Positions 2,675-53,469 of a stretch of DNA of 64,000 nt are shown piece after piece; the first letter of the stretch is position 1, and each line of letters starts with the position of its first letter. Origin of the DNA: a virus; IMG/VR virus record IMGVR_UViG_3300037524_002067, positions 1-64,000 of that record, one strand, 5' to 3'. The position numbers and the translations under genes were made by a program. The notes below the pieces were generated by a model. It was given only the letters and a program-made list of their open reading frames with translations, did no database searches and had not been told where the DNA came from.

Positions 2675-3409
2675 AAGACTAAATTATTTATCAAACTTAA
2701 TTTTTAAGCCATGTGTTTCTTTAACCCTATCCAGTGGTGCCAATTTAAAAAACTTTGCAACATCAGCAGGATCTTCAAAAATCTCTGAAGTCCACCAAGT
2801 GTTTTTACCAAAAGAAATTTCATACACAGGTTCATTCTCTGTGTATCTCTTACCAGTCACAAGTCCAGCAACAATTCTGGCACCCCACATACCATTGTCG
2901 ATTATACCATATCGTGGTTGACCAATATGCTTATCTTCATTCATTTCTTTTTTAGTTTTTTACGCAATGAATCAATAGCTGGCTTCATATCTTTTATAAG
3001 CCAACGTTCAATATCTTTTGGGGAATAATTTTTATTACCCTCAAGCGATTCCCATGCCTCAATTAATTTTTTAACCTCTTTTCTCAATCGTAAATCTCTT
3101 TTGTCATTATGATTATAATATCTCCACGAACACTTAAACTTCGTCCGAATTGTTTTCCATCAAGCGCAACAGATACAGATTGACTCATTAAGTGTTGAAC
3201 CTGGAAGCCCTCTTTGATTTTTGCATCCATCCAGGTTTTTGCATAACTGGCTGTGTTGCATACAAAAGTTATTGTTTCAATCTTTTTGGTTTTTTGCTTT
3301 GCTGGAGTGCCAGACATAATGAGAACAACCAACAATACACTACCTATAAAAGCTACGGAATAAATAATTGCCTTTTTCATGATTCTATATGGATTATACG
3401 CAAAAAAAA

Positions 3410-4231
3410 TTAAATAGTTTCATATGGAACTGGTTCAATTCTTTTAATTGGTGCGTCATTTTGAAAATCGGTCTCAGCCAAAGCTTTTGTATCAATATAA
3501 GTGTCGTTGTTCAATTCATGACCTTTCATTTCTACATATCTGTATTTTCTTTTTTGGAGAAATTCTGGTACATTTTCGCCAAGCTCTATGTGTTCCAAAT
3601 AATACTTTCTGGTCATTGGCCCAGTGTGTTCATAAATGAAAGTGTGATCTACAGGGACCATACCGCCAACTTTTGGGGCTTTTCCATCATGAGCATCCAT
3701 TGTTGGAAAATAAATGAATCTACCACCACCAAATGGCTTGTATTCAAAAGCAATTGGTTGAGAAGATGAGGTTTCGTTTGTATCAAAAAAACAAACCGCA
3801 AAAGACCAACCAGCATATTTTTCTTGAAAAAAACTTTGTAATTCTTCTGAAATTTCAGGTCGTTTTTCCTCTGGAAATTCTGCTATGGCTTTTTTTACAT
3901 CATCAAAGTTTTTAGTTAAAACAATATCGTAAATTCCAAGTTTAAATCTTTCAACACTTAAACCTTTTGACAAAAACCCTCTTGATCTCATTCCGCACCA
4001 TTCATCCCACTCAGCTTTCTTGATAATGTCGTCAAGAAAATTTTTATAGTTTTCTGTGTTATGAAATAACGATTGTGTTGTTTCACCTGGAATCGGTAAA
4101 ATCATTGCATTTGGCTTTCCAGATTCATTTTTTACACTGTTGCTATAAGCAATAAAATGGTTTCCGTTCTCTAAAGGAAGAGATAGAATTTTTGTCTTTG
4201 ACAATGCGGCGGTGTTAACTGTGATGCACAT
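3410..4231 (-). CDS. Hypothetical protein
   Basis: 273-aa ORF in the co-oriented gene string; no function recognised. Confidence 0.6.
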   Translation of the reverse strand: MCITVNTAALSKTKILSLPLENGNHFIAYSNSVKNESGKPNAMILPIPGETTQSLFHNTENYKNFLDDIIKKAEWDEWCGMRSRGFLSKGLSVERFKLGIYDIVLTKNFDDVKKAIAEFPEEKRPEISEELQSFFQEKYAGWSFAVCFFDTNETSSSQPIAFEYKPFGGGRFIYFPTMDAHDGKAPKVGGMVPVDHTFIYEHTGPMTRKYYLEHIELGENVPEFLQKRKYRYVEMKGHELNNDTYIDTKALAETDFQNDAPIKRIEPVPYETI

Positions 4232-19501: not shown

Positions 19502-20110
19502 AACAGTCTTAATCTCAATTTTACTTTCTCGTATTTTTCCTGAGTTTTTTTATATTCAGCTGCAAATACTGCAGCTTTAAAGTTTTTTGAATCTAAGCGC
19601 TTTTTTAAAAACGCCATATATTCTTCCTCCTGTTTCCTGGTTGGTTTTTTATTTGCCATTAGTATTCTTTTTGAATAATTCCTGTATTCTTTCGATATAC
19701 ACACTAACATCTTCTTGGTTTAAATACTCAATATCTATTGTAAGATCTATTGCAAGCGCTCTCCTTCTTCTTTTAATGTAAGTTTTATCTACTTCTTGTT
19801 TTTTAAGCCACTCTTTTATAAATAAAACTTCTGTCATTGCTTACTTTTTATGAATTCTTTATATTTATTTTCGGCTTCTACAACACTTTGAGTATTGTCA
19901 AATTCTTTCATTAGAACAACCTTCTCTTCTTTTGTTAAATCAAACCCAGAAAGTATTTTGGTAACACATATAAGCTTTGAATTAAACAACTTAATTTGTT
20001 CCAATTCAACAATAAGTTCTTGATATTTCTGATCGCACCTATCATGTCGAGTTGTTTTTTGTAAATATAATAAAAAAAGAGCAATAATCAAATTGCTCTT
20101 TCTTAATTGG

Positions 20111-20181
20111 AGGCCCCGATTCGAATTTAACGAATCTAACAAGTTTTGCAGACCTGTGGTTAGTCTCTCACCCACGGGGCC
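20111..20181 (-). tRNA. Divergent tRNA-Cys(GCA) overlapping ORF ends
   Basis: Acceptor GGCCCCG/CGGGGCC-T, loop CTGCAAA, aberrant T loop. Confidence 0.6.
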
Positions 20182-20391
20182 ATATTATGTTTTTTTGCAA
20201 CGCGCTGATAAAACCGTGAAATTCTTGAAAAACCTTATTGATATTTTCTAAACCTGAACCTGAAACTGAAACCGATAATTCACCAAGAGCCTTTTGAGCT
20301 TCTATACACCCTTGTTTACTCAAATCTTTCAATTTTTTTAAGGACACTTTTCCATTTTTTATATCCAACCATTCTTTAACGTATAATACTA

Positions 20392-21147
20392 TCATTTAAT
20401 GTTATATTTTTTATTCCAAATTTCAATTTTTTGTTTTAATTCCTCTAGCGAAATAATTGATTTAGTTTTTTTCTTTTGATTATCAGTGTGAATTACTAAC
20501 CTACAATTAGCTGGGTGCTTAATTATATCAGGACTAACCTTGTTTTTAAAACCGTCATTTACACTATACATATGATCCCTACTTGCGCCACCCAAGTTAT
20601 TGTTTTTATTTGACGGGCTGTAAAATCCAAATTTGTTTATTAATGTTATATCAAACTCTTTAGGGTAATCATTAAAGCTAAAAACAAATTCACAAACTGG
20701 TCTATAATAATCATAATACTGTAATTTACATTCATCACATATAGTCTTTTTGCCAATCACTCTTTGATTTGAGCACTTGCTGCAAAATCTAATTTTTTCT
20801 TTTTTAAGTTTAATTTTTTTTACTTTTTTAGATGCAATTTCACGCAAAGAATCGCTAATTTTTTTTCTTGTTTCATCGCTGAGTATCCTCCCTCGATTAT
20901 TAAATGTTACAAAACAACTTCTAGAACAAAAAATTTTTTCAGAATAATTTTGAACTTTGAAGATCGTTTTACATTCTTTGCATTGCACTTCTTTATAATA
21001 TTCTTTTTCATCCTTAATACCTATTCTAAAGCATCTGTTGATTATGCTCCTATAAGATACATCAAAAATTTTAGCTATATCTTTACGTGCTTTTCCCTGT
21101 TTAGACAACTCTTTTAAAAGCTCATCTTTTTCTTTGCTCCATTTCAT
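20392..21147 (-). CDS. HTH/Zn-finger/HNH-like endonuclease
   Basis: N-terminal HTH, CKEC...FCSRSC, and SRDH...HPANC...N. Confidence 0.7.
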   Translation of the reverse strand: MKWSKEKDELLKELSKQGKARKDIAKIFDVSYRSIINRCFRIGIKDEKEYYKEVQCKECKTIFKVQNYSEKIFCSRSCFVTFNNRGRILSDETRKKISDSLREIASKKVKKIKLKKEKIRFCSKCSNQRVIGKKTICDECKLQYYDYYRPVCEFVFSFNDYPKEFDITLINKFGFYSPSNKNNNLGGASRDHMYSVNDGFKNKVSPDIIKHPANCRLVIHTDNQKKKTKSIISLEELKQKIEIWNKKYNIK

Positions 21148-21209
21148 AACTATAAATAGTATGAAAAAAAGACGATAATAACAAACGAGCTAATTGTGTG
21201 TTAGTTTTG

Positions 21210-21296
21210 AGAACATAGTCAGATTCGAACTGACGAACAAATTACTTTGTATAACGGTTTTGCAGACCGCTGACTTAACCACTCATCCATATGTTC
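21210..21296 (-). tRNA. tRNA-Cys(GCA) with long variable arm
   Basis: GCGGT-CTGCAAA-ACCGT; variable stem ACAAA-GTAA-TTTGT. Confidence 0.85.
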
Positions 21297-21300
21297 GTTG

Positions 21301-21373
21301 AGACACCTGAGAGATTCGAACTCCCGTAGCATGGGTTGCGACCATGAACCTGTAACCACTCGGCCAAGGTGTC
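21301..21373 (-). tRNA. tRNA-Cys(GCA)
   Basis: CATGG-TCGCAAC-CCATG (C33 variant); U73. Confidence 0.8.
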
Positions 21374-21405
21374 ATATTCAGGTGCCACTTCTGACACCTG
21401 AGATT

Positions 21406-22314
21406 TTAAGCAGCTTTTTTGTTTTTGTTCTTTTTGTACTTACCTGCTCTACGCGATTTCTTTTGTTTATCACAAACGAAGTCTGCAGCGCAATTAGCGG
21501 CCCAGCTGTGTGGCTTATACCTTACTCTGAAACCTTGACCTTCTAAAGCAGCCTTCGCTCCTTCGTAAACATATGAAGATTTATTCTTCACATCTTTGTT
21601 GGTCATAGAAGCAAGGTAGCTTCTAAGTTTAGCTGGTTGTGTAAGTTGAACATTCATTACATATTCCAACTCAGATTCGCTGATGTCATTCAACGAAAGA
21701 GTGTTTGTAGGATTTGTAACATTTATCAACCTGTCATTCTTTTCATCAATGAAGTATTGTCTTCCCTTGATAAGAACCTTGCCCTGAAGATCCTCTGGGA
21801 TTTTAAAACCAGGGTCGATGTTAATATCTACGTCAAGTCCAATCAACTTATTTTGGTGAGATGAATATCCAAGAGTTTGCAATTCTTCCATATTCAATCT
21901 CTTTACAAGACCATCCAATTCTTTTTCAAGGTAATTACCAAGATAAAGAACACGCTCAACTTCACCCCAGATCTTTCCATAGATGCTGGATTCTTTTGCA
22001 GCTTTTACAAGCGCCTTGTCTCTGTTTTTATCACCAGTCTTTTCAACCCATAATCTTTCGCTAGGTACAAGTTCTTTATTAAAGATGTAATGTACACCAT
22101 CACGTCTGAACTCGTCGTAAAACGCAACTACGGAAGCGTAAAGAGTATTTCTACCACGTTCAGAAGCATCAGCTCCTACGTAAACTTTTGTTCCAGGGAA
22201 CTTCTTTAAATAGCTCCGAACATATTCTCCAAGGTCTGGGATTAATTCACCACCAAACTTCTTGAACCCTTTTTCCATTGGAATTTTTTCTTCCATTTTT
22301 TCTACTGTTTTCAT
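21406..22314 (-). CDS. RNase H-like (YkuK/DUF458-type) protein
   Basis: VYVGADAS, DVDIN, KSS and KPHSWAANCAAD motifs. Confidence 0.7.
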   Translation of the reverse strand: MKTVEKMEEKIPMEKGFKKFGGELIPDLGEYVRSYLKKFPGTKVYVGADASERGRNTLYASVVAFYDEFRRDGVHYIFNKELVPSERLWVEKTGDKNRDKALVKAAKESSIYGKIWGEVERVLYLGNYLEKELDGLVKRLNMEELQTLGYSSHQNKLIGLDVDINIDPGFKIPEDLQGKVLIKGRQYFIDEKNDRLINVTNPTNTLSLNDISESELEYVMNVQLTQPAKLRSYLASMTNKDVKNKSSYVYEGAKAALEGQGFRVRYKPHSWAANCAADFVCDKQKKSRRAGKYKKNKNKKAA

Positions 22315-22323
22315 AAATATATC

Positions 22324-23139
22324 TCAATTTTTCACCATTTCCAATATTCCATAATTTTTGCACCACTTTCTTACAGCATTATCACTGACACCAAAATGTT
22401 TACCTACTTGTACAAAGTTTTTAAATTCTTCAAATGCTTTTAAAATTTCTGGCACCTTCGGAATTTTACTCTGTTCTTTTCTTGCATCTCCAACACAAGC
22501 AATACTACAATACAGTGATCCTATTCTTTTACAATCTTTACCACATTGTTTGCATTTGTTTTTTTCTTTAGGTGTTTTAGGCGTTTTTATTTTTGTTGTT
22601 TTTGCTTGTTTGTTTTTTAATACATTGTCTTTATTTTCAAAATTTTCTTTTCTCATCTCCGACTTAAAACTTAGCGTGTTTTTACCTCTATAGTTATCTT
22701 CCTGAGCGTGACAATTTGGGCAAAGTATCTTTAAGTTTTCAATTCTATTATCCGTGTTGTTTCCATTTTCGTGATGGAGTTCTGTTGGTATTTTTTTATA
22801 TTGCCACAAAGTCAATAAACAAGATTCACATTTTTCTTCTTTTAAACCTTCTATAATTAATCTATGTTTTAATTTGGTAGAATTTTTATAAGGAGAATTT
22901 TCAATTAAAATTTCTTCTAGTTTGTATTTCTTACCAAAATGTTTATAATTATCGCCATTGTTCCAACCTTGACCAGTGAAGTGAGAAATATCTACATTTA
23001 ATTCTTTAAATAAAAAATTTAAAGTCTTGTAGTTGCCTCCAGATGGTCGTATTTTTAATTCTCTACAAACTCCAGCAACTGATATATTATTTTTAATCGC
23101 TTCTCTTAATTGCTCTTCGTTGTATTTGTTTATTTTCAT
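22324..23139 (-). CDS. HNH homing endonuclease with HTH
   Basis: ELHHENGNNTDNRIENLKILCPNCH; C-terminal GVSDNAVRKW HTH. Confidence 0.9.
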   Translation of the reverse strand: MKINKYNEEQLREAIKNNISVAGVCRELKIRPSGGNYKTLNFLFKELNVDISHFTGQGWNNGDNYKHFGKKYKLEEILIENSPYKNSTKLKHRLIIEGLKEEKCESCLLTLWQYKKIPTELHHENGNNTDNRIENLKILCPNCHAQEDNYRGKNTLSFKSEMRKENFENKDNVLKNKQAKTTKIKTPKTPKEKNKCKQCGKDCKRIGSLYCSIACVGDARKEQSKIPKVPEILKAFEEFKNFVQVGKHFGVSDNAVRKWCKNYGILEMVKN

Positions 23140-23232
23140 GCTTTTTTATTATAAATAGTATGAAAAATCAAAAAAGAAGACTTAAGATTTAATATTATTT
23201 TTAAGTCTTCTTTTTTGATAAAACTCAACAAG

Positions 23233-23315
23233 TAGGGTAGGAGGGAGTCGAACCCTCACGGACTATGCCACAAATTTTTAAGATTTGCACGTGCTGCCTA
23301 TTTCGTCACTACCCC
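23233..23315 (-). tRNA. tRNA-Leu(TAA)
   Basis: CAAAT-CTTAAAA-ATTTG; class II variable arm. Confidence 0.9.
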
Positions 23316-23340
23316 ATAATTCAAAGAACATTTTATTTCA

Positions 23341-23374
23341 AAAAAAAAGGACCCAGATTTAAGTCTGAGCCCTT
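23341..23374 (-). terminator. Attenuator terminator of the Leu/Cys array
   Basis: AAGGGCTCAGA-CTTAAA-TCTGGGTCCTT followed by a U tract. Confidence 0.85.
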
Positions 23375-23402
23375 TTATCAAAAAAATACTTTTTATAGAT
23401 AC

Positions 23403-23516
23403 CTAAGAACTCAAACATAACGGTGCGCATAAACACAAAAAGCCATACCCTAGATCTGTTTTCACAGAAATAGATGGACTCATTGACCACGCTGTTATAT
23501 TTTGATTTCTTTTCAT
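23403..23516 (-). CDS. Attenuator leader peptide 2 (MKRNQNITAWSMSPSISVKTDLGYGFLCLCAPLCLSS)
   Basis: TTG TGT TTA TGC GCA CCG TTA TGT TTG run; GTTTGAGTTCTT can pair with the terminator 5' arm. Confidence 0.8.
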   Translation of the reverse strand: MKRNQNITAWSMSPSISVKTDLGYGFLCLCAPLCLSS

Positions 23517-23589
23517 CTTTTATAAATAAGCGGAAAAATTTCTTTTTCCAACACACAAATGTAATACTTTATTTTTTAATTTACAACAA

Positions 23590-23618
23590 TTATACGAAAT
23601 ATTTTTTAAAAGGTTGCA
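23590..23618 (-). promoter_or_regulatory. TGCAAC-N16-CGTA promoter (TACATTTG element downstream at 23556-23563)
   Basis: Recurrent motif pair in this window. Confidence 0.6.
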
Positions 23619-23821
23619 TTTTTTATTAATCCGTAAACGCTTTATAAGGTTCCCAACCCATTAACTCATAATGTTGCCTCATACAATCATCTATGTCTTT
23701 GCCAACAATTTCTCTAAGTTTTATAGCATCAGGTTCTAAAAGTTTTTTAGATCTTTCATCACCTTTTTCAACAACAGTTACACTATTGTTGGATTCTGCT
23801 GTGTAGATTTCTATTGTCATG

Positions 23822-24653: not shown

Positions 24654-25294
24654 CGGTCATCGTTTTAGGGATTAACCTAACGACATCCAGATGCATATTT
24701 AAAAGTATTATTCATTTTTAAAAATTTATTTTTCACACTCAATTTCATGTTCTTCAATATCTTCAAAAGAAAATTTTTGATGGCATTTCAAACACATCGC
24801 AGAATTATTCCAATCCCAATCTGGTTGACCAAAACTATCTTCAAGCGGCTCTATTTTTTTCTTAGTTAAAGCTTTCAAGCACATCATAAAAAAATCAGCT
24901 TGCTCCTGGGTTTTGATCACCTTGCTAAGTGAAGTTTCTATTGGTTTTTCTTTTGACCAATCCACTTTTATCCCCTTAGTTTTTGCAAGCTCAATTATTT
25001 CATTAATCTTTTCTTGAACTTTTTGTTTGCTCAAATCTTTTTTCATGTTTCAAAGATACAAAAAAACTAGAACTTTAAGGTTTTAATGTAATATTTTCTT
25101 TTTTAGAATCACTGTAATAACTCACAGAATCCCCCTCAATTAATTTTTTAATTTGAGTAGCAGCGTCTTGAAAATCTTTTTTATAATGCTCAAGCTCAAT
25201 GCCACGTATAAATGTGGAACTCACAATAAGATCCACAATTTGTTCTTCTGTAATTTCTGTTTTCATAAAACAAATATAACAAATTATTTTCTTG

Positions 25295-25395: not shown

Positions 25396-25404
25396 TTTTA
25401 TTTG

Positions 25405-25482
25405 TGCGGATGGAGGGAATTGAACCCCCGACTGCTTCCCAAGGTATAAGCTTGGCGCTCTTGACCACTGAGCTACACCCGC
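25405..25482 (-). tRNA. tRNA-Ile(TAT)
   Basis: CCAAG-CTTATAC-CTTGG. Confidence 0.85.
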
Positions 25483-25488
25483 ATTTTG

Positions 25489-25572
25489 TAGTGACGGCGG
25501 GGATCGAACCCACGTTGACATTTCTGTCCCATCTTATCAGGATGGTGCCTCAAACCACTCGGCCACGTCACT
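25489..25572 (-). tRNA. tRNA-Ile(GAT) with long variable arm
   Basis: CCATC-CTGATAA-GATGG; variable stem GACA-GAAA-TGTC. Confidence 0.85.
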
Positions 25573-25652
25573 ATTTTTCCTATTAACTCTTCCACACTCT
25601 AACGTGAGTGGGTTGACAGAACTTCGGAGAGAATTTCTTCTCGTTCAGTTAG

Positions 25653-25726
25653 TAGTCATAGACGGACTCGAACCATCAACCTCCACGGTATCAGCGTGGC
25701 GCTCTAACCAATTGAGCTATACGACT
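25653..25726 (-). tRNA. tRNA-Ile(GAT)
   Basis: CCACG-CTGATAC-CGTGG. Confidence 0.9.
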
Positions 25727-26044
25727 ATGTGGGGGAAGCTTTGACATAGTGCATATGATATTGTCATCACTTTTTTATATTCCGCCCCTTCGGGTTTATC
25801 TCACATTTGTGAAAGAACGATATTTCTTAAGTTTTCAAGACTAAAATCTTGAACATTTTTTGCAAAAAACATTCTGTAGCTTTCGTTTTGATTCAAAGGA
25901 AACACTGTTATTACAACACTCCCAAATCTGGTGTGTTGTAACCAAACTCTTCTGAATCTATCTGCAAAAGAAGCAGCCAACTCCTTTTGTCTTTCATTCA
26001 TATTTACACTGTTCAAACTTTCCATTTTATTCCTTTATTTTAAG

Positions 26045-26130
26045 TCCCCCTGGTTGGATTCAAACCAACGATGGATTTTTACATCTCCATGTTAAAAGCA
26101 TGGTGCTATCGGTCACTAAGCGACAGAGGG
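26045..26130 (-). tRNA. tRNA-Lys(TTT) with long variable arm
   Basis: CCATG-CTTTTAA-CATGG. Confidence 0.85.
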
Positions 26131-26145
26131 TTATTTTATTTTTAG

Positions 26146-26218
26146 TTCCCCTGTCGTGAATCGAACACGACCAATCGCCTTAAGAGGGCGGAGCATACAG
26201 CCAGTTTGCTACAAGGGA
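26146..26218 (-). tRNA. tRNA-Lys(CTT)
   Basis: CGCC-CTCTTAA-GGCG. Confidence 0.85.
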
Positions 26219-26232
26219 ATATTTATTTTATG

Positions 26233-26305
26233 TTCCCCCGCTTGGAATCGAACCAAGCCTGAACGGGTAAAAACCGTTTGCCTACAGCCAGTTTGCTACG
26301 AGGGA
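26233..26305 (-). tRNA. tRNA-Lys(TTT)
   Basis: AACGG-TTTTTAC-CCGTT. Confidence 0.85.
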
Positions 26306-26408
26306 ATAATGATGAGATCATTGAACTCGTAGTTTACTGTACGAGCTCTTATCTTTTCTTCTGTTTATATTTGAACATTTTTTTCATTTTTATTTTTTTA
26401 TTTTCTAG

Positions 26409-26481
26409 AGCTGTAGTTCGGGCTCGAACCGAAAACCTTCTGATTACAAATCAGAGGCACCACCAATTGTGCTACTACAGC
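26409..26481 (-). tRNA. tRNA-Thr(TGT)
   Basis: TCTGA-TTTGTAA-TCAGA. Confidence 0.9.
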
Positions 26482-26491
26482 GTGTTTTTTG

Positions 26492-26576
26492 AGCCTATGG
26501 AGAGATTCAAACTCCCGATGGATTATTAGTCTCCTGCTTACAAGGCAGGTGCAATCGTTCACTATGCGACATAGGC
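26492..26576 (-). tRNA. tRNA-Thr(TGT) with long variable arm
   Basis: CCTGC-CTTGTAA-GCAGG. Confidence 0.85.
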
Positions 26577-28443: not shown

Positions 28444-28677
28444 TTAAAGAACATCGCCAAGTTCATTTCGCAAATCTTTTTTGAGTTGTTGTCTTACTCC
28501 TTTTTTTAGTGAGCGATTTGCGTTTCTCACTTCTTCTTTTTTACTTTTACTCTTCAAGTTGCTTGGCACATCTTGAGAGTGATCTATTGACCATTTTCTT
28601 TCCTGGTTTTTCGAGAATGGGGTCATTTTTTTATGTTTACCCTCTTTCTTTACTATTACACCTTTTTGCTTACTCAT
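28444..28677 (-). CDS. Small basic protein, first gene of array 3
   Basis: K/R-rich 77-aa ORF directly after the attenuator terminator. Confidence 0.6.
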   Translation of the reverse strand: MSKQKGVIVKKEGKHKKMTPFSKNQERKWSIDHSQDVPSNLKSKSKKEEVRNANRSLKKGVRQQLKKDLRNELGDVL

Positions 28678-52063: not shown

Positions 52064-52135
52064 TGTTCGTTGTTTTTTTACTATTATAAATAATAACAAA
52101 AAAACTTCGGGCACAGGTTTTTAAAAAATAATTTG

Positions 52136-52221
52136 TGGAAATGACGGGACTCGAACCCGCATTAGAACTTTCGTCCGTCCTGATTGCAAATCAGGTGCCT
52201 AACCAATTAGACTACATCCCC
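52136..52221 (-). tRNA. tRNA-Ala(TGC) with long variable arm
   Basis: G3:U70; loop TTTGCAA. Confidence 0.85.
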
Positions 52222-52226
52222 ATTTG

Positions 52227-52300
52227 TGGAGGTAAACGGATTCGAACCGATGACCCCCTGCGTGCAAGGCAGGTGCTCTAGCCAGCTGAGCTATACCCCC
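52227..52300 (-). tRNA. tRNA-Ala(TGC)
   Basis: Canonical cloverleaf; G3:U70. Confidence 0.95.
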
Positions 52301-53156: not shown

Positions 53157-53275
53157 AGTTGTAATTTTTGTCTAGGTTTTCTTCCTAACAATTGCTTTTA
53201 GAAGCTGACACATCCTCTGACGTGCCATCCCATGTACTTAGGGTAGCCTTTCAGCAACTTCTAAACTTTTTAATG

Positions 53276-53362
53276 CGGGACTGAAGGGAGTCGAACCCTC
53301 TACGAGATTTTCATCTGCACCACATAGACAGTGTGGCATACCAGCCGTTATACGCCAGCCCC
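53276..53362 (-). tRNA. tRNA-Asp(GTC) with long variable arm
   Basis: CCACA-CTGTCTA-TGTGG; G73. Confidence 0.85.
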
Positions 53363-53393
53363 AATTTGATTTTTATCTAGGTTTTCTCCTAGT

Positions 53394-53469
53394 TGGCAGT
53401 GCATACGGGGGTCGAACCCGCTCCTCAACCGCAGACAACGGCGCATCTTAACCATTTGACCTATGCACT
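53394..53469 (-). tRNA. tRNA-Asp(GTC)
   Basis: GCCG-TTGTCTG-CGGT; GCCA end. Confidence 0.85.

Follow-up and report, generated by a model that had tools for sequence, protein, structure and literature searches.

A putative leader-peptide attenuator ahead of tRNA-Leu(UAA) and tRNA-Cys(GCA) genes in an IMG/VR virus record

A short open reading frame (ORF) that runs out in leucine and cysteine codons and is followed by an intrinsic terminator and then by genes for tRNA-Leu and tRNA-Cys raises two questions: whether translation of the ORF governs transcription of the tRNAs and, if it does, whether the quantity sensed is a tRNA species or an amino acid. The ORF, termed Leader 2, lies in a 154,343-base IMG/VR virus record of 32% G+C and an estimated completeness of 59%; the window analyzed here is the first 64 kb of that record. 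ARAGORN detects 37 tRNA genes, 37/37 on the minus strand, and several extra tRNAs are gained with relaxed settings and Rfam. Homing-endonuclease genes are interspersed among them. DNA similarity to deposited phages, near or distant, is confined to tRNA and HNH fragments.

Judged from its sequence, Leader 2 is very probably a ribosome-mediated leader-peptide transcription attenuator that would gate tRNA-Leu(UAA), a YkuK-like gene, and three tRNA-Cys(GCA). The parts of the device, their mutual exclusivity, their conservation, and the codon–gene match come from computation, and it is from these that we infer translation, termination, and response.

Layout of the Leader 2 unit

The unit spans 3.5 kb and is read in the order promoter, 37-codon ORF, intrinsic terminator, and tRNA-Leu(UAA); it also carries further tRNAs and four protein ORFs (HNH, 302, 251, and 75 residues). 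Its features are as follows.

23590..23618, minus strand: promoter belonging to the class that recurs in this phage, in which a conserved −10 element follows a −35-like hexamer after a spacer of 16 bases
23532..23549, minus strand: 5′-UTR hairpin with a 7-pair stem and a 4-base loop, aligning with an element in leaders a, c, and d
23403..23516, minus strand: leader ORF of 37 codons with an ATG start and a TAG stop
23427..23438, minus strand: probable sensing codons 27–30 (Leu UUG, Cys UGU, Leu UUA, Cys UGC)
23405..23416, minus strand: 5′ strand of the antiterminator (region 2), overlapping codons 34–37 and the first base of the stop codon
23337..23375, minus strand: intrinsic terminator, with its 5′ arm (region 3) at 23374..23363, its 3′ arm at 23358..23347, and its T-tract at 23345..23337
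23232..23315, minus strand: tRNA-Leu, anticodon UAA, class II, 84 bases (ARAGORN; Rfam 49.7 bits)
23166..23218, minus strand: A+T-rich 18-pair hairpin followed by a T-run, −20 kcal/mol, in this genome only
22324..23139, minus strand: HNH homing-endonuclease gene (phrog_10822, E = 1.7e-52), an insertion specific to this genome
21406..22314, minus strand: 302-residue YkuK/DUF458 RNase H-like protein (PF04308) with an insertion of ~140 residues, its family assigned via homologues
21373..21300 and 21296..21209, minus strand: two tRNA-Cys(GCA), the first of 74 bases and the second of 88 bases with a long variable arm
20168..21147, minus strand: two ORFs of 251 and 75 residues, the former with an N-terminal helix-turn-helix and a match to phrog_23051
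20108..20181, minus strand: third tRNA-Cys(GCA), whose T-loop is unusual and whose CCA end is encoded (ARAGORN; absent from Rfam matches at E up to 1)
20073..20104, minus strand: strong intrinsic terminator, predicted from sequence, that closes the unit

The initial annotation of this locus held that the downstream unit has exactly one tRNA-Leu(UAA) and three tRNA-Cys(GCA). ARAGORN bears this out for the interval between the leader terminator (23375..23337) and the next strong one (20104..20073), where it finds these four tRNAs and no others; Rfam confirms 3/4 and misses the third Cys.

A motif of the recurrent promoter class, built by coordinates from the leader-a site (see below), has 12 minus-strand sites in the record versus 0.015 expected in shuffles, and one of them starts at 23618. 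No further site of this class lies inside the Leader 2 unit, and sigma-70-type promoters there amount to 30 matches versus 32 in shuffles, giving no sign of an internal promoter. An earlier 15-base promoter pattern was dropped, its matches being mostly due to chance. The T-tract of the leader terminator and tRNA-Leu are 21 bases apart here and only 9–10 bases apart in relatives, a gap so short that it leaves no room for a promoter of the tRNA's own.

Further downstream the unit is less uniform. The A+T-rich hairpin (23218–23166) and the HNH gene that follow tRNA-Leu are absent from this position in the relatives L150, M, and G4, described below. Together they may end part of the transcripts before the Cys tRNAs are reached, and because they intervene, it is less certain in this genome than in the relatives that the gate also controls the Cys tRNAs.

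The last twelve codons of Leader 2 encode Phe-Leu-Cys-Leu-Cys-Ala-Pro-Leu-Cys-Leu-Ser-Ser and are followed by the stop. They contain the nine-codon run UUG UGU UUA UGC GCA CCG UUA UGU UUG (23438..23412), which had been noted previously at the leader's end and is found there. The Leu codons of the run are UUA and UUG only, again as noted; the one further Leu codon of the ORF, CUA at codon 22, lies outside it. Since 64% of all Leu codons in the phage are UUR, four of four UUR in the run is weak when taken alone (P = 0.17). Amino acid composition is more telling: Cys and Leu constitute 0.9% and 7.9% of the residues in 95 long ORFs of the record, and three or more Cys in 36 residues has a probability of 0.004 at the phage's own Cys frequency. 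For 7/9 residues being Leu or Cys, P = 1.3e-6, in a window picked post hoc. A comparable Leu/Cys run occurs in only 7 of 3931 stop-to-stop frames of 20–80 codons record-wide; the other such frames are mostly antisense, and none lies ahead of tRNAs. A degenerate pattern for the nine-residue run returned 0 matches in IMG/VR.

Small Cys-containing peptides occur in phages, and Leader 2 might simply be an ordinary gene for one of them (e.g., a membrane or modified peptide) that has its own terminator and adjoins tRNAs by accident. The loose conservation of an N-terminal Met-Lys start and a Trp is in keeping with such a gene. It is nonetheless highly improbable, as the peptide has no protein family match, only the Leu/Cys codons and the pairing segment are conserved, the tRNA is without any other promoter, and four sister ORFs of other compositions each match their own tRNAs.

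Competing hairpins and the proposed gate

The terminator consists of a stem at 23375..23346 (9–13 pairs) followed by nine T. Upstream of it, 23416..23405 (region 2) pairs with 23374..23363 (region 3) through 12 pairs, 3 of them G-U, to give a duplex of −15.8 kcal/mol. Equivalent duplexes between an ORF segment and the 5′ arm of the terminator in five leaders of the record, Leader 2 included, range from −15.3 to −18.8 kcal/mol. As controls, the best partner within 100 bases upstream was determined for each of 23 other terminators in the same record; these duplexes have a mean of −6.5 kcal/mol (sd 2.3) and a best value of −11.0 kcal/mol, which places the antiterminator pairing 4 sd beyond the control terminators. 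The leader–terminator pairing that had been proposed from the letters is thus real and exceptional, and it is also conserved in relatives.

The antiterminator (2:3) hairpin and the terminator have region 3 in common and are nearly isoenergetic in Leader 2, at −16.4 versus −17.0 kcal/mol. When the RNA is folded in the order of its synthesis, the antiterminator forms first and persists until the 3′ arm of the terminator is complete. At equilibrium the slightly more stable terminator wins every time, and with a masked ribosome footprint the antiterminator never appeared. Since the terminator prevails at equilibrium, the switch must be kinetic, like classic attenuators.

Region 2 ends on the first base of the stop codon, so that a terminating ribosome would cover it. 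A search for a trp-type 1:2 anti-antiterminator or pause hairpin found none; region 2 has at best an A+U-rich upstream partner, at −9 kcal/mol. Because region 2 has no convincing upstream partner, an untranslated leader should be ON, i.e., read through.

The ribosome footprint reaches about 12 bases past the A-site codon. Codons 27–30 start 22, 19, 16, and 13 bases 5′ of region 2, and at these distances a ribosome paused on any of them would leave region 2 free, which makes them the probable sensors. The final Leu-Cys-Leu codons start 4, 1, and −2 bases from the 5′ end of region 2. As this triplet abuts or overlaps the antiterminator segment, it is probably retained for pairing more than for sensing. 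The likely sensor is therefore confined to the first four codons of the nine-codon run.

The gate would operate in four steps. (i) Transcription would start at the promoter (23618), with a ribosome translating the 37-codon ORF close behind the polymerase. (ii) Where UUR and UGY codons are read fast, the ribosome would reach the stop and cover 23416..23405, and the terminator would form before the tRNA is transcribed. (iii) Where the ribosome waits at codons 27–30 for charged UAA-type tRNA-Leu or tRNA-Cys, region 2 would be free to pair with the 5′ arm of the terminator, permitting read-through. (iv) The new tRNAs, charged by host synthetases, would speed leader translation and close the gate, a negative feedback on supply. 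The structural elements of an attenuator are present at this locus, namely a promoter, a short conserved ORF, a cluster of cognate codons, a terminator, and an antiterminator exclusive with it, with the exception of the trp-type 1:2 hairpin.

The enterobacterial leader-peptide attenuators include those of trp, his, and leu and the multivalent ones of thr and ilvGMEDA. Leader 2 shares with them a short ORF, a run of regulatory codons, and a terminator with an exclusive antiterminator that overlaps the end of the ORF and, with the thr and ilv leaders, the sensing of more than one amino acid. It differs in that (i) its targets are tRNA genes and not biosynthetic enzymes, such that the output would feed back directly on the sensed quantity, (ii) the lack of a detected anti-antiterminator or pause hairpin predicts an ON state without translation, and (iii) it has a phage-specific promoter class and is one of five gates that together cover most amino acids. 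Modelling of the enterobacterial attenuators is available for comparison (PMC1183508).

The closest parallels by target and by specificity differ in other ways. A translation-apparatus gene under leader-peptide attenuation is also found at pheST, which is cellular, controls a synthetase, and senses one amino acid, whereas Leader 2 is viral and would control tRNAs. In the pheST attenuator of E. coli, the pheM leader peptide reports a charged tRNA. T-boxes, in turn, resemble Leader 2 in exerting tRNA-specific, anticodon-level control of read-through by a choice between terminator and antiterminator; a T-box binds uncharged tRNA directly and without a ribosome, while Leader 2 has an ORF in place of the specifier loop, and tRNAs themselves are regulated. 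T-box (RF00230) matches are absent from Rfam scans of the whole window at the gathering score and of 20000–23700 with E up to 1. Rfam models for the leaders of amino-acid operons (Leu, Thr, His, Trp, and the like) yield sub-threshold, terminator-like matches only, overlapping 23333–23411. To our knowledge, the described cases of leader-peptide attenuation concern amino-acid biosynthesis and a small number of synthetase genes, none of them tRNA genes, and full-text searches of the literature found no account of leader-peptide control of tRNA genes, in cells or phages. The mechanism is textbook; the target, tRNA genes, and the direct feedback on the sensed quantity are new.

Paralogous leaders and related lineages

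When the region ahead of each tRNA block was surveyed, five instances of this architecture came to light in the record. The family plan comprises a conserved promoter, a small UTR hairpin, an A-rich start context, an ORF of 29–42 codons, an intrinsic terminator, and tRNAs. The five leaders are listed below.

Leader a, 1515–1408: peptide rich in Leu, Arg, Phe, Val, Gln, and Tyr; tRNAs in the record Tyr and Phe
Leader b (Leader 2), 23516–23403: peptide rich in Leu and Cys; tRNAs Leu(UAA) and Cys
Leader c, 28884–28783: peptide rich in Asn, His, Thr, Lys, Ile, and Met; tRNAs for the same six
Leader d, about 54983–54856: peptide rich in Pro, Ala, Met, Gly, Tyr, and Asp; tRNAs for the same six
Leader e, 77431–77342 of the record: peptide rich in Ser, Arg, and Trp; tRNAs for the same three

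The a-type units of relatives that reach past the end of this contig also have Val, Leu (CUN, UUG), Arg(ACG), and Gln tRNAs. With the amino-acid frequencies of the phage as background, each peptide shows enrichment only for the set of its own tRNA block (P = 4e-4, 1e-2, 7e-4, 2e-5, and 1e-6), and the true leader–tRNA pairing ranks 1/120 among permutations. The five terminators are unlike in sequence, and each has its own matching segment in the 3′ part of its ORF. In orthologues of the sister leaders, e.g., leaders c and d, terminator and ORF segment have changed together.

By alignment, Leader 2 is a paralogue of its sisters, with which it shares promoter class, UTR hairpin, start context, a Gly-Tyr codon motif, and the terminator/antiterminator logic. 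Its working promoter is displaced upstream by 34 bases and adjoins a decayed copy of the family −10 region. Its sensing run has been added after the Gly-Tyr motif, and its antiterminator strand overlaps the stop codon, in contrast to a position 12–28 bases upstream of the stop in the sisters. Among the five it is alone in using TAG as its stop and would sense the fewest amino acids. A YkuK-like protein directly behind the gate is missing from the four sister units.

Related loci were reached in three ways. (i) A neighboring 64-residue protein led to the syntenic phage contig G4. (ii) A pattern made from the present and the G4 versions recovered from metagenomes a third lineage, M (L152–L154), and a near-identical relative (L150/L151). 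(iii) An alignment of the 302-residue protein used as the query retrieved 19 loci, where the same protein as a single query retrieved none, and revealed a fourth lineage, N (L156, L157). One further candidate, L149, was rejected as a chance match, as it is without tRNAs and differs in base composition.

The Leader 2 design is kept in G4, M, and L150. Downstream of each leader lie, in order, the terminator, tRNA-Leu(UAA) at a distance of 9–30 bases, the 302-residue gene, and Cys tRNAs. Each leader has three Cys codons and a Leu-Cys pair 13–22 bases upstream of region 2, and a Leu-Cys or Cys codon stands 12–22 bases before the antiterminator in every lineage. The ORF has 35–39 codons in four lineages; its frame is kept in three lineages besides this one, and the indels within it are all multiples of three. 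Region 2 is the same and ends at the stop in G4, M, and L150, and in three lineages the stop keeps a constant place with respect to the pairing segment. Elsewhere the peptide has diverged, and so has the spacer that separates region 2 from region 3.

The helices are likewise maintained. An RNAalifold consensus of four sequences returned the antiterminator helix with 9/9 pairs kept, two of them with one-sided changes and none with a double compensatory change, both helices being nearly invariant. In the terminators of the relatives, an indel in one arm is matched by an indel in the other, and in L150 a U-G pair is replaced by U-A. The antiterminator is weaker than the terminator in G4 (−12.5 versus −19.4 kcal/mol) and in M (−14.6 versus −15.3 to −17.2 kcal/mol).

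Lineage N offers a natural experiment. Its b-type leader (L157:3253–3363) and terminator (3388–3418) are followed directly by the gene for the 302-residue protein and two Cys tRNAs, and neither ARAGORN nor Rfam finds a tRNA-Leu in the unit; the tRNA-Leu(UAA) of this phage is located in its a-type unit. The leader has 3 Cys codons, which precede its antiterminator by 39, 21, and 12 bases. Of its only two Leu codons, one is a CUG that precedes the antiterminator by 33 bases and the other a UUG within the pairing segment, leaving zero UUR codons upstream of the antiterminator. As the N unit lacks both these codons and the tRNA, UUR codons of the sensing zone appear to come and go with their tRNA. 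This lineage is the strongest single argument for a functional codon–gene match at Leader 2.

The comparison also bears on what the gate serves. It could chiefly serve the YkuK-like RNase H-fold gene and the Cys tRNAs, with tRNA-Leu(UAA) as a movable passenger. All four lineages have the leader, the YkuK-like gene, and the Cys tRNAs as constant parts, while the number of tRNA-Leu(UAA) genes is 1, 2, 2, 1, or 0. The 302-residue gene is invariably placed after the leader (or tRNA-Leu) and before the Cys tRNAs, and its product, with 64–95% identity in L150, M, and G4 and 51% in N, is far better conserved (51–95%) than its neighbors. (An AlphaFold model of the protein has a pLDDT of 41, too poor for a structure search.) On the other side, the sensing zone has 3–4 UUR codons where tRNA-Leu(UAA) is present in the unit and none where it is absent, which argues that the leader tracks the tRNA, and none of the four sister gates has such a protein directly behind it. 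This reading is unlikely; it is compatible with, and not opposed to, the attenuator reading.

The same data weigh against a hairpin that senses nothing. In that case the ORF would be untranslated or its translation irrelevant, and the hairpin would be a constitutive, partly leaky terminator, a processing signal, or a small-RNA end that sets tRNA dosage. Leader 2 has no Shine–Dalgarno sequence, and the missing 1:2 pairing and a terminator that always forms at equilibrium also agree with this. But across lineages the reading frame, the start context, and the place of the stop with respect to the pairing segment are preserved, and the length of indels is a multiple of three; composition follows the tRNAs in five paralogues and shifts with tRNA content in N; and the antiterminator pairing stands well outside the controls. 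Such a static element is accordingly quite unlikely.

Isoacceptor level versus amino acid

With attenuation as the preferred reading, the remaining question is what the gate would measure. The initial annotation placed the codon match at the isoacceptor level and took this to mean that a tRNA species rather than an amino acid is sensed. The Leu codons are indeed linked to tRNA-Leu(UAA), as lineage N indicates; selection at the isoacceptor level is not established, and neither is the sensing of a tRNA as opposed to an amino acid, because a ribosome stalled at a codon responds to the charged tRNA that decodes it, and a deficit of that tRNA would look to the gate just like a deficit of Leu or Cys. 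Only one of the two deficits, the lack of tRNA, can be cured by the output. UUA is readable only by UAA-type tRNA, and in this sense the sensor would be isoacceptor-specific in what it physically measures. The leu leader of Salmonella reportedly contains rare CUA codons and loses sensitivity when these are replaced; it would be a precedent for codon-level tuning.

A more ambitious reading, advanced here tentatively, is that of a closed-loop, codon-resolved controller in which five gates would each gauge in real time how fast ribosomes read a chosen set of codons and transcribe exactly the matching tRNAs, and in which Leader 2 would have been tuned by selection to the UUA/UUG isoacceptor and Cys. 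If so, the phage would replace, only when and where needed, host tRNAs that are in short supply given its A+T-rich codons or that host defense nucleases destroy. Depletion of tRNA is a recurrent antiviral strategy, to which phage tRNAs offer a way around (PMC13462974 and work cited there), and a link between the gate and tRNA-depleting defenses would give it a plausible use (PMC13462974). If the gate is real, these phage tRNA genes are expressed on demand and not constitutively, with a product that removes its own inducing signal, and the grouping of tRNAs in large phages acquires a testable reason. Such leaders could also be used as small sensors that report how fast particular codons are decoded. 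With two amino acids and a single Leu isoacceptor, Leader 2 is the smallest and cleanest of the five, and this makes it the best construct on which to separate tRNA species from amino acid.

It is also quite possible that the attenuator is the same and its codon choice is unselected at the isoacceptor level, the gate reporting Leu and Cys charging generally, starvation included. The prevalence of UUR in the phage, with its P = 0.17 for the run, fits this, as does the contrast of all Leu codons between b-type and a-type ORFs, which is not significant (P = 0.23). The a-type leaders have 1 to 4 UUA codons, yet their unit is without a UAA tRNA in G1 (a close relative) and in G4, and isoacceptor matching for Leu is not evident there. 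What speaks for finer tuning is the position of the codons. Within the sensing zone, up to 34 bases upstream of region 2, the Leu codons of this genome, G4, and M are 10/10 UUR (nine UUA and one UUG), for which P = 0.012 if they were independent; the lineages are related, and these are not ten independent trials. CUN codons in the three occur only further upstream or within region 2, and the sensing zone differs from the a-type leaders (6 CUN, 7 UUR) with a Fisher P of 0.019. Taken together, the codon counts are only suggestive of isoacceptor-level selection on Leader 2. The Arg codons of the sister leaders split likewise: those of leader a are CGY, ahead of tRNA-Arg(ACG), in a phage where CGN accounts for only 17% of Arg codons (P = 0.03), and those of leader e are AGR, ahead of tRNA-Arg(UCU).

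Elements within the Leader 2 unit

Leader 2, the 37-codon reading frame and terminator ahead of tRNA-Leu(UAA) and three tRNA-Cys(GCA), is followed by protein genes and short elements.

Features of the Leader 2 unit (window coordinates)
23403-23405: TAG stop of Leader 2
23316-23336: short motif between the Leader 2 terminator and tRNA-Leu (also in L128, a locus in a related record, at about 1204-1230)
23166-23218: A+T-rich 18-pair hairpin flanked by runs of A and T, inserted after tRNA-Leu
22324-23139: HNH homing-endonuclease gene, inserted after tRNA-Leu
21406-22314, minus strand: gene for an RNase H-like protein of 302 residues (YkuK/DUF458 family, PF04308)

In four lineages, the YkuK-like gene invariably follows the leader or tRNA-Leu and precedes the Cys tRNAs; across these lineages the protein retains 51-95% identity. 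It carries an insertion of ~140 residues, and its AlphaFold model is poor (pLDDT 41). The HNH gene and the 18-pair hairpin are confined to this genome; at the same site, close relatives carry a second tRNA-Leu(UAA) instead. The short motif downstream of the terminator recurs 3′ of a tRNA-Phe in a relative and 3′ of tRNA-Leu in the related phage G4, and could act as a signal for processing or as the target of a homing endonuclease.

Among the five leaders, only Leader 2 has a TAG stop. The phage also encodes a tRNA with a CUA anticodon, i.e., an amber suppressor (record position 81480-81552). Beyond the TAG, the frame runs on without a stop through the terminator and into tRNA-Leu; this holds for this genome and lineage M, but not for G4. 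If the TAG were read through, the ribosome could, speculatively, block the terminator.

Leader and promoter variants in other units

In a related record (G002, about 24657-25186), the same promoter and UTR hairpin are followed directly by tRNA-Met and two tRNA-Glu, and no leader ORF separates the hairpin from tRNA-Met; therefore, the promoter module also occurs ungated. The Ser/Arg unit of lineage N (record G005, 80165-81246) also includes a tRNA-Cys, and its leader contains one Cys codon, near its end, and keeps two Trp codons, even though the tRNA genes called in that record do not include tRNA-Trp.

Additional reading frame in the leader c unit (window coordinates)
28444-28677, minus strand: Lys-rich 77-residue ORF between the leader c terminator and the first tRNA-Asn

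This ORF matches no family and is kept in the G4 relative (L142/L147) as an 86-residue ORF.

Paired and atypical tRNA genes

Same-anticodon tRNA pairs are frequent, with a gene of normal length (73-76 bases) adjoining one of 84-89 bases.

Same-anticodon pairs of normal and long tRNA genes (window coordinates)
21209-21373
25404-25726
26044-26305
26408-26576
52135-52300
53275-53469

The 88-base tRNA-Cys of the pair at 21209-21373 carries a long variable arm resembling that of class II tRNAs, an uncommon feature for Cys. In the third tRNA-Cys (20108-20181), the T-loop is non-canonical and the CCA end is encoded in the gene; it has no Rfam match, even with E up to 1, although ARAGORN draws it as a full cloverleaf.
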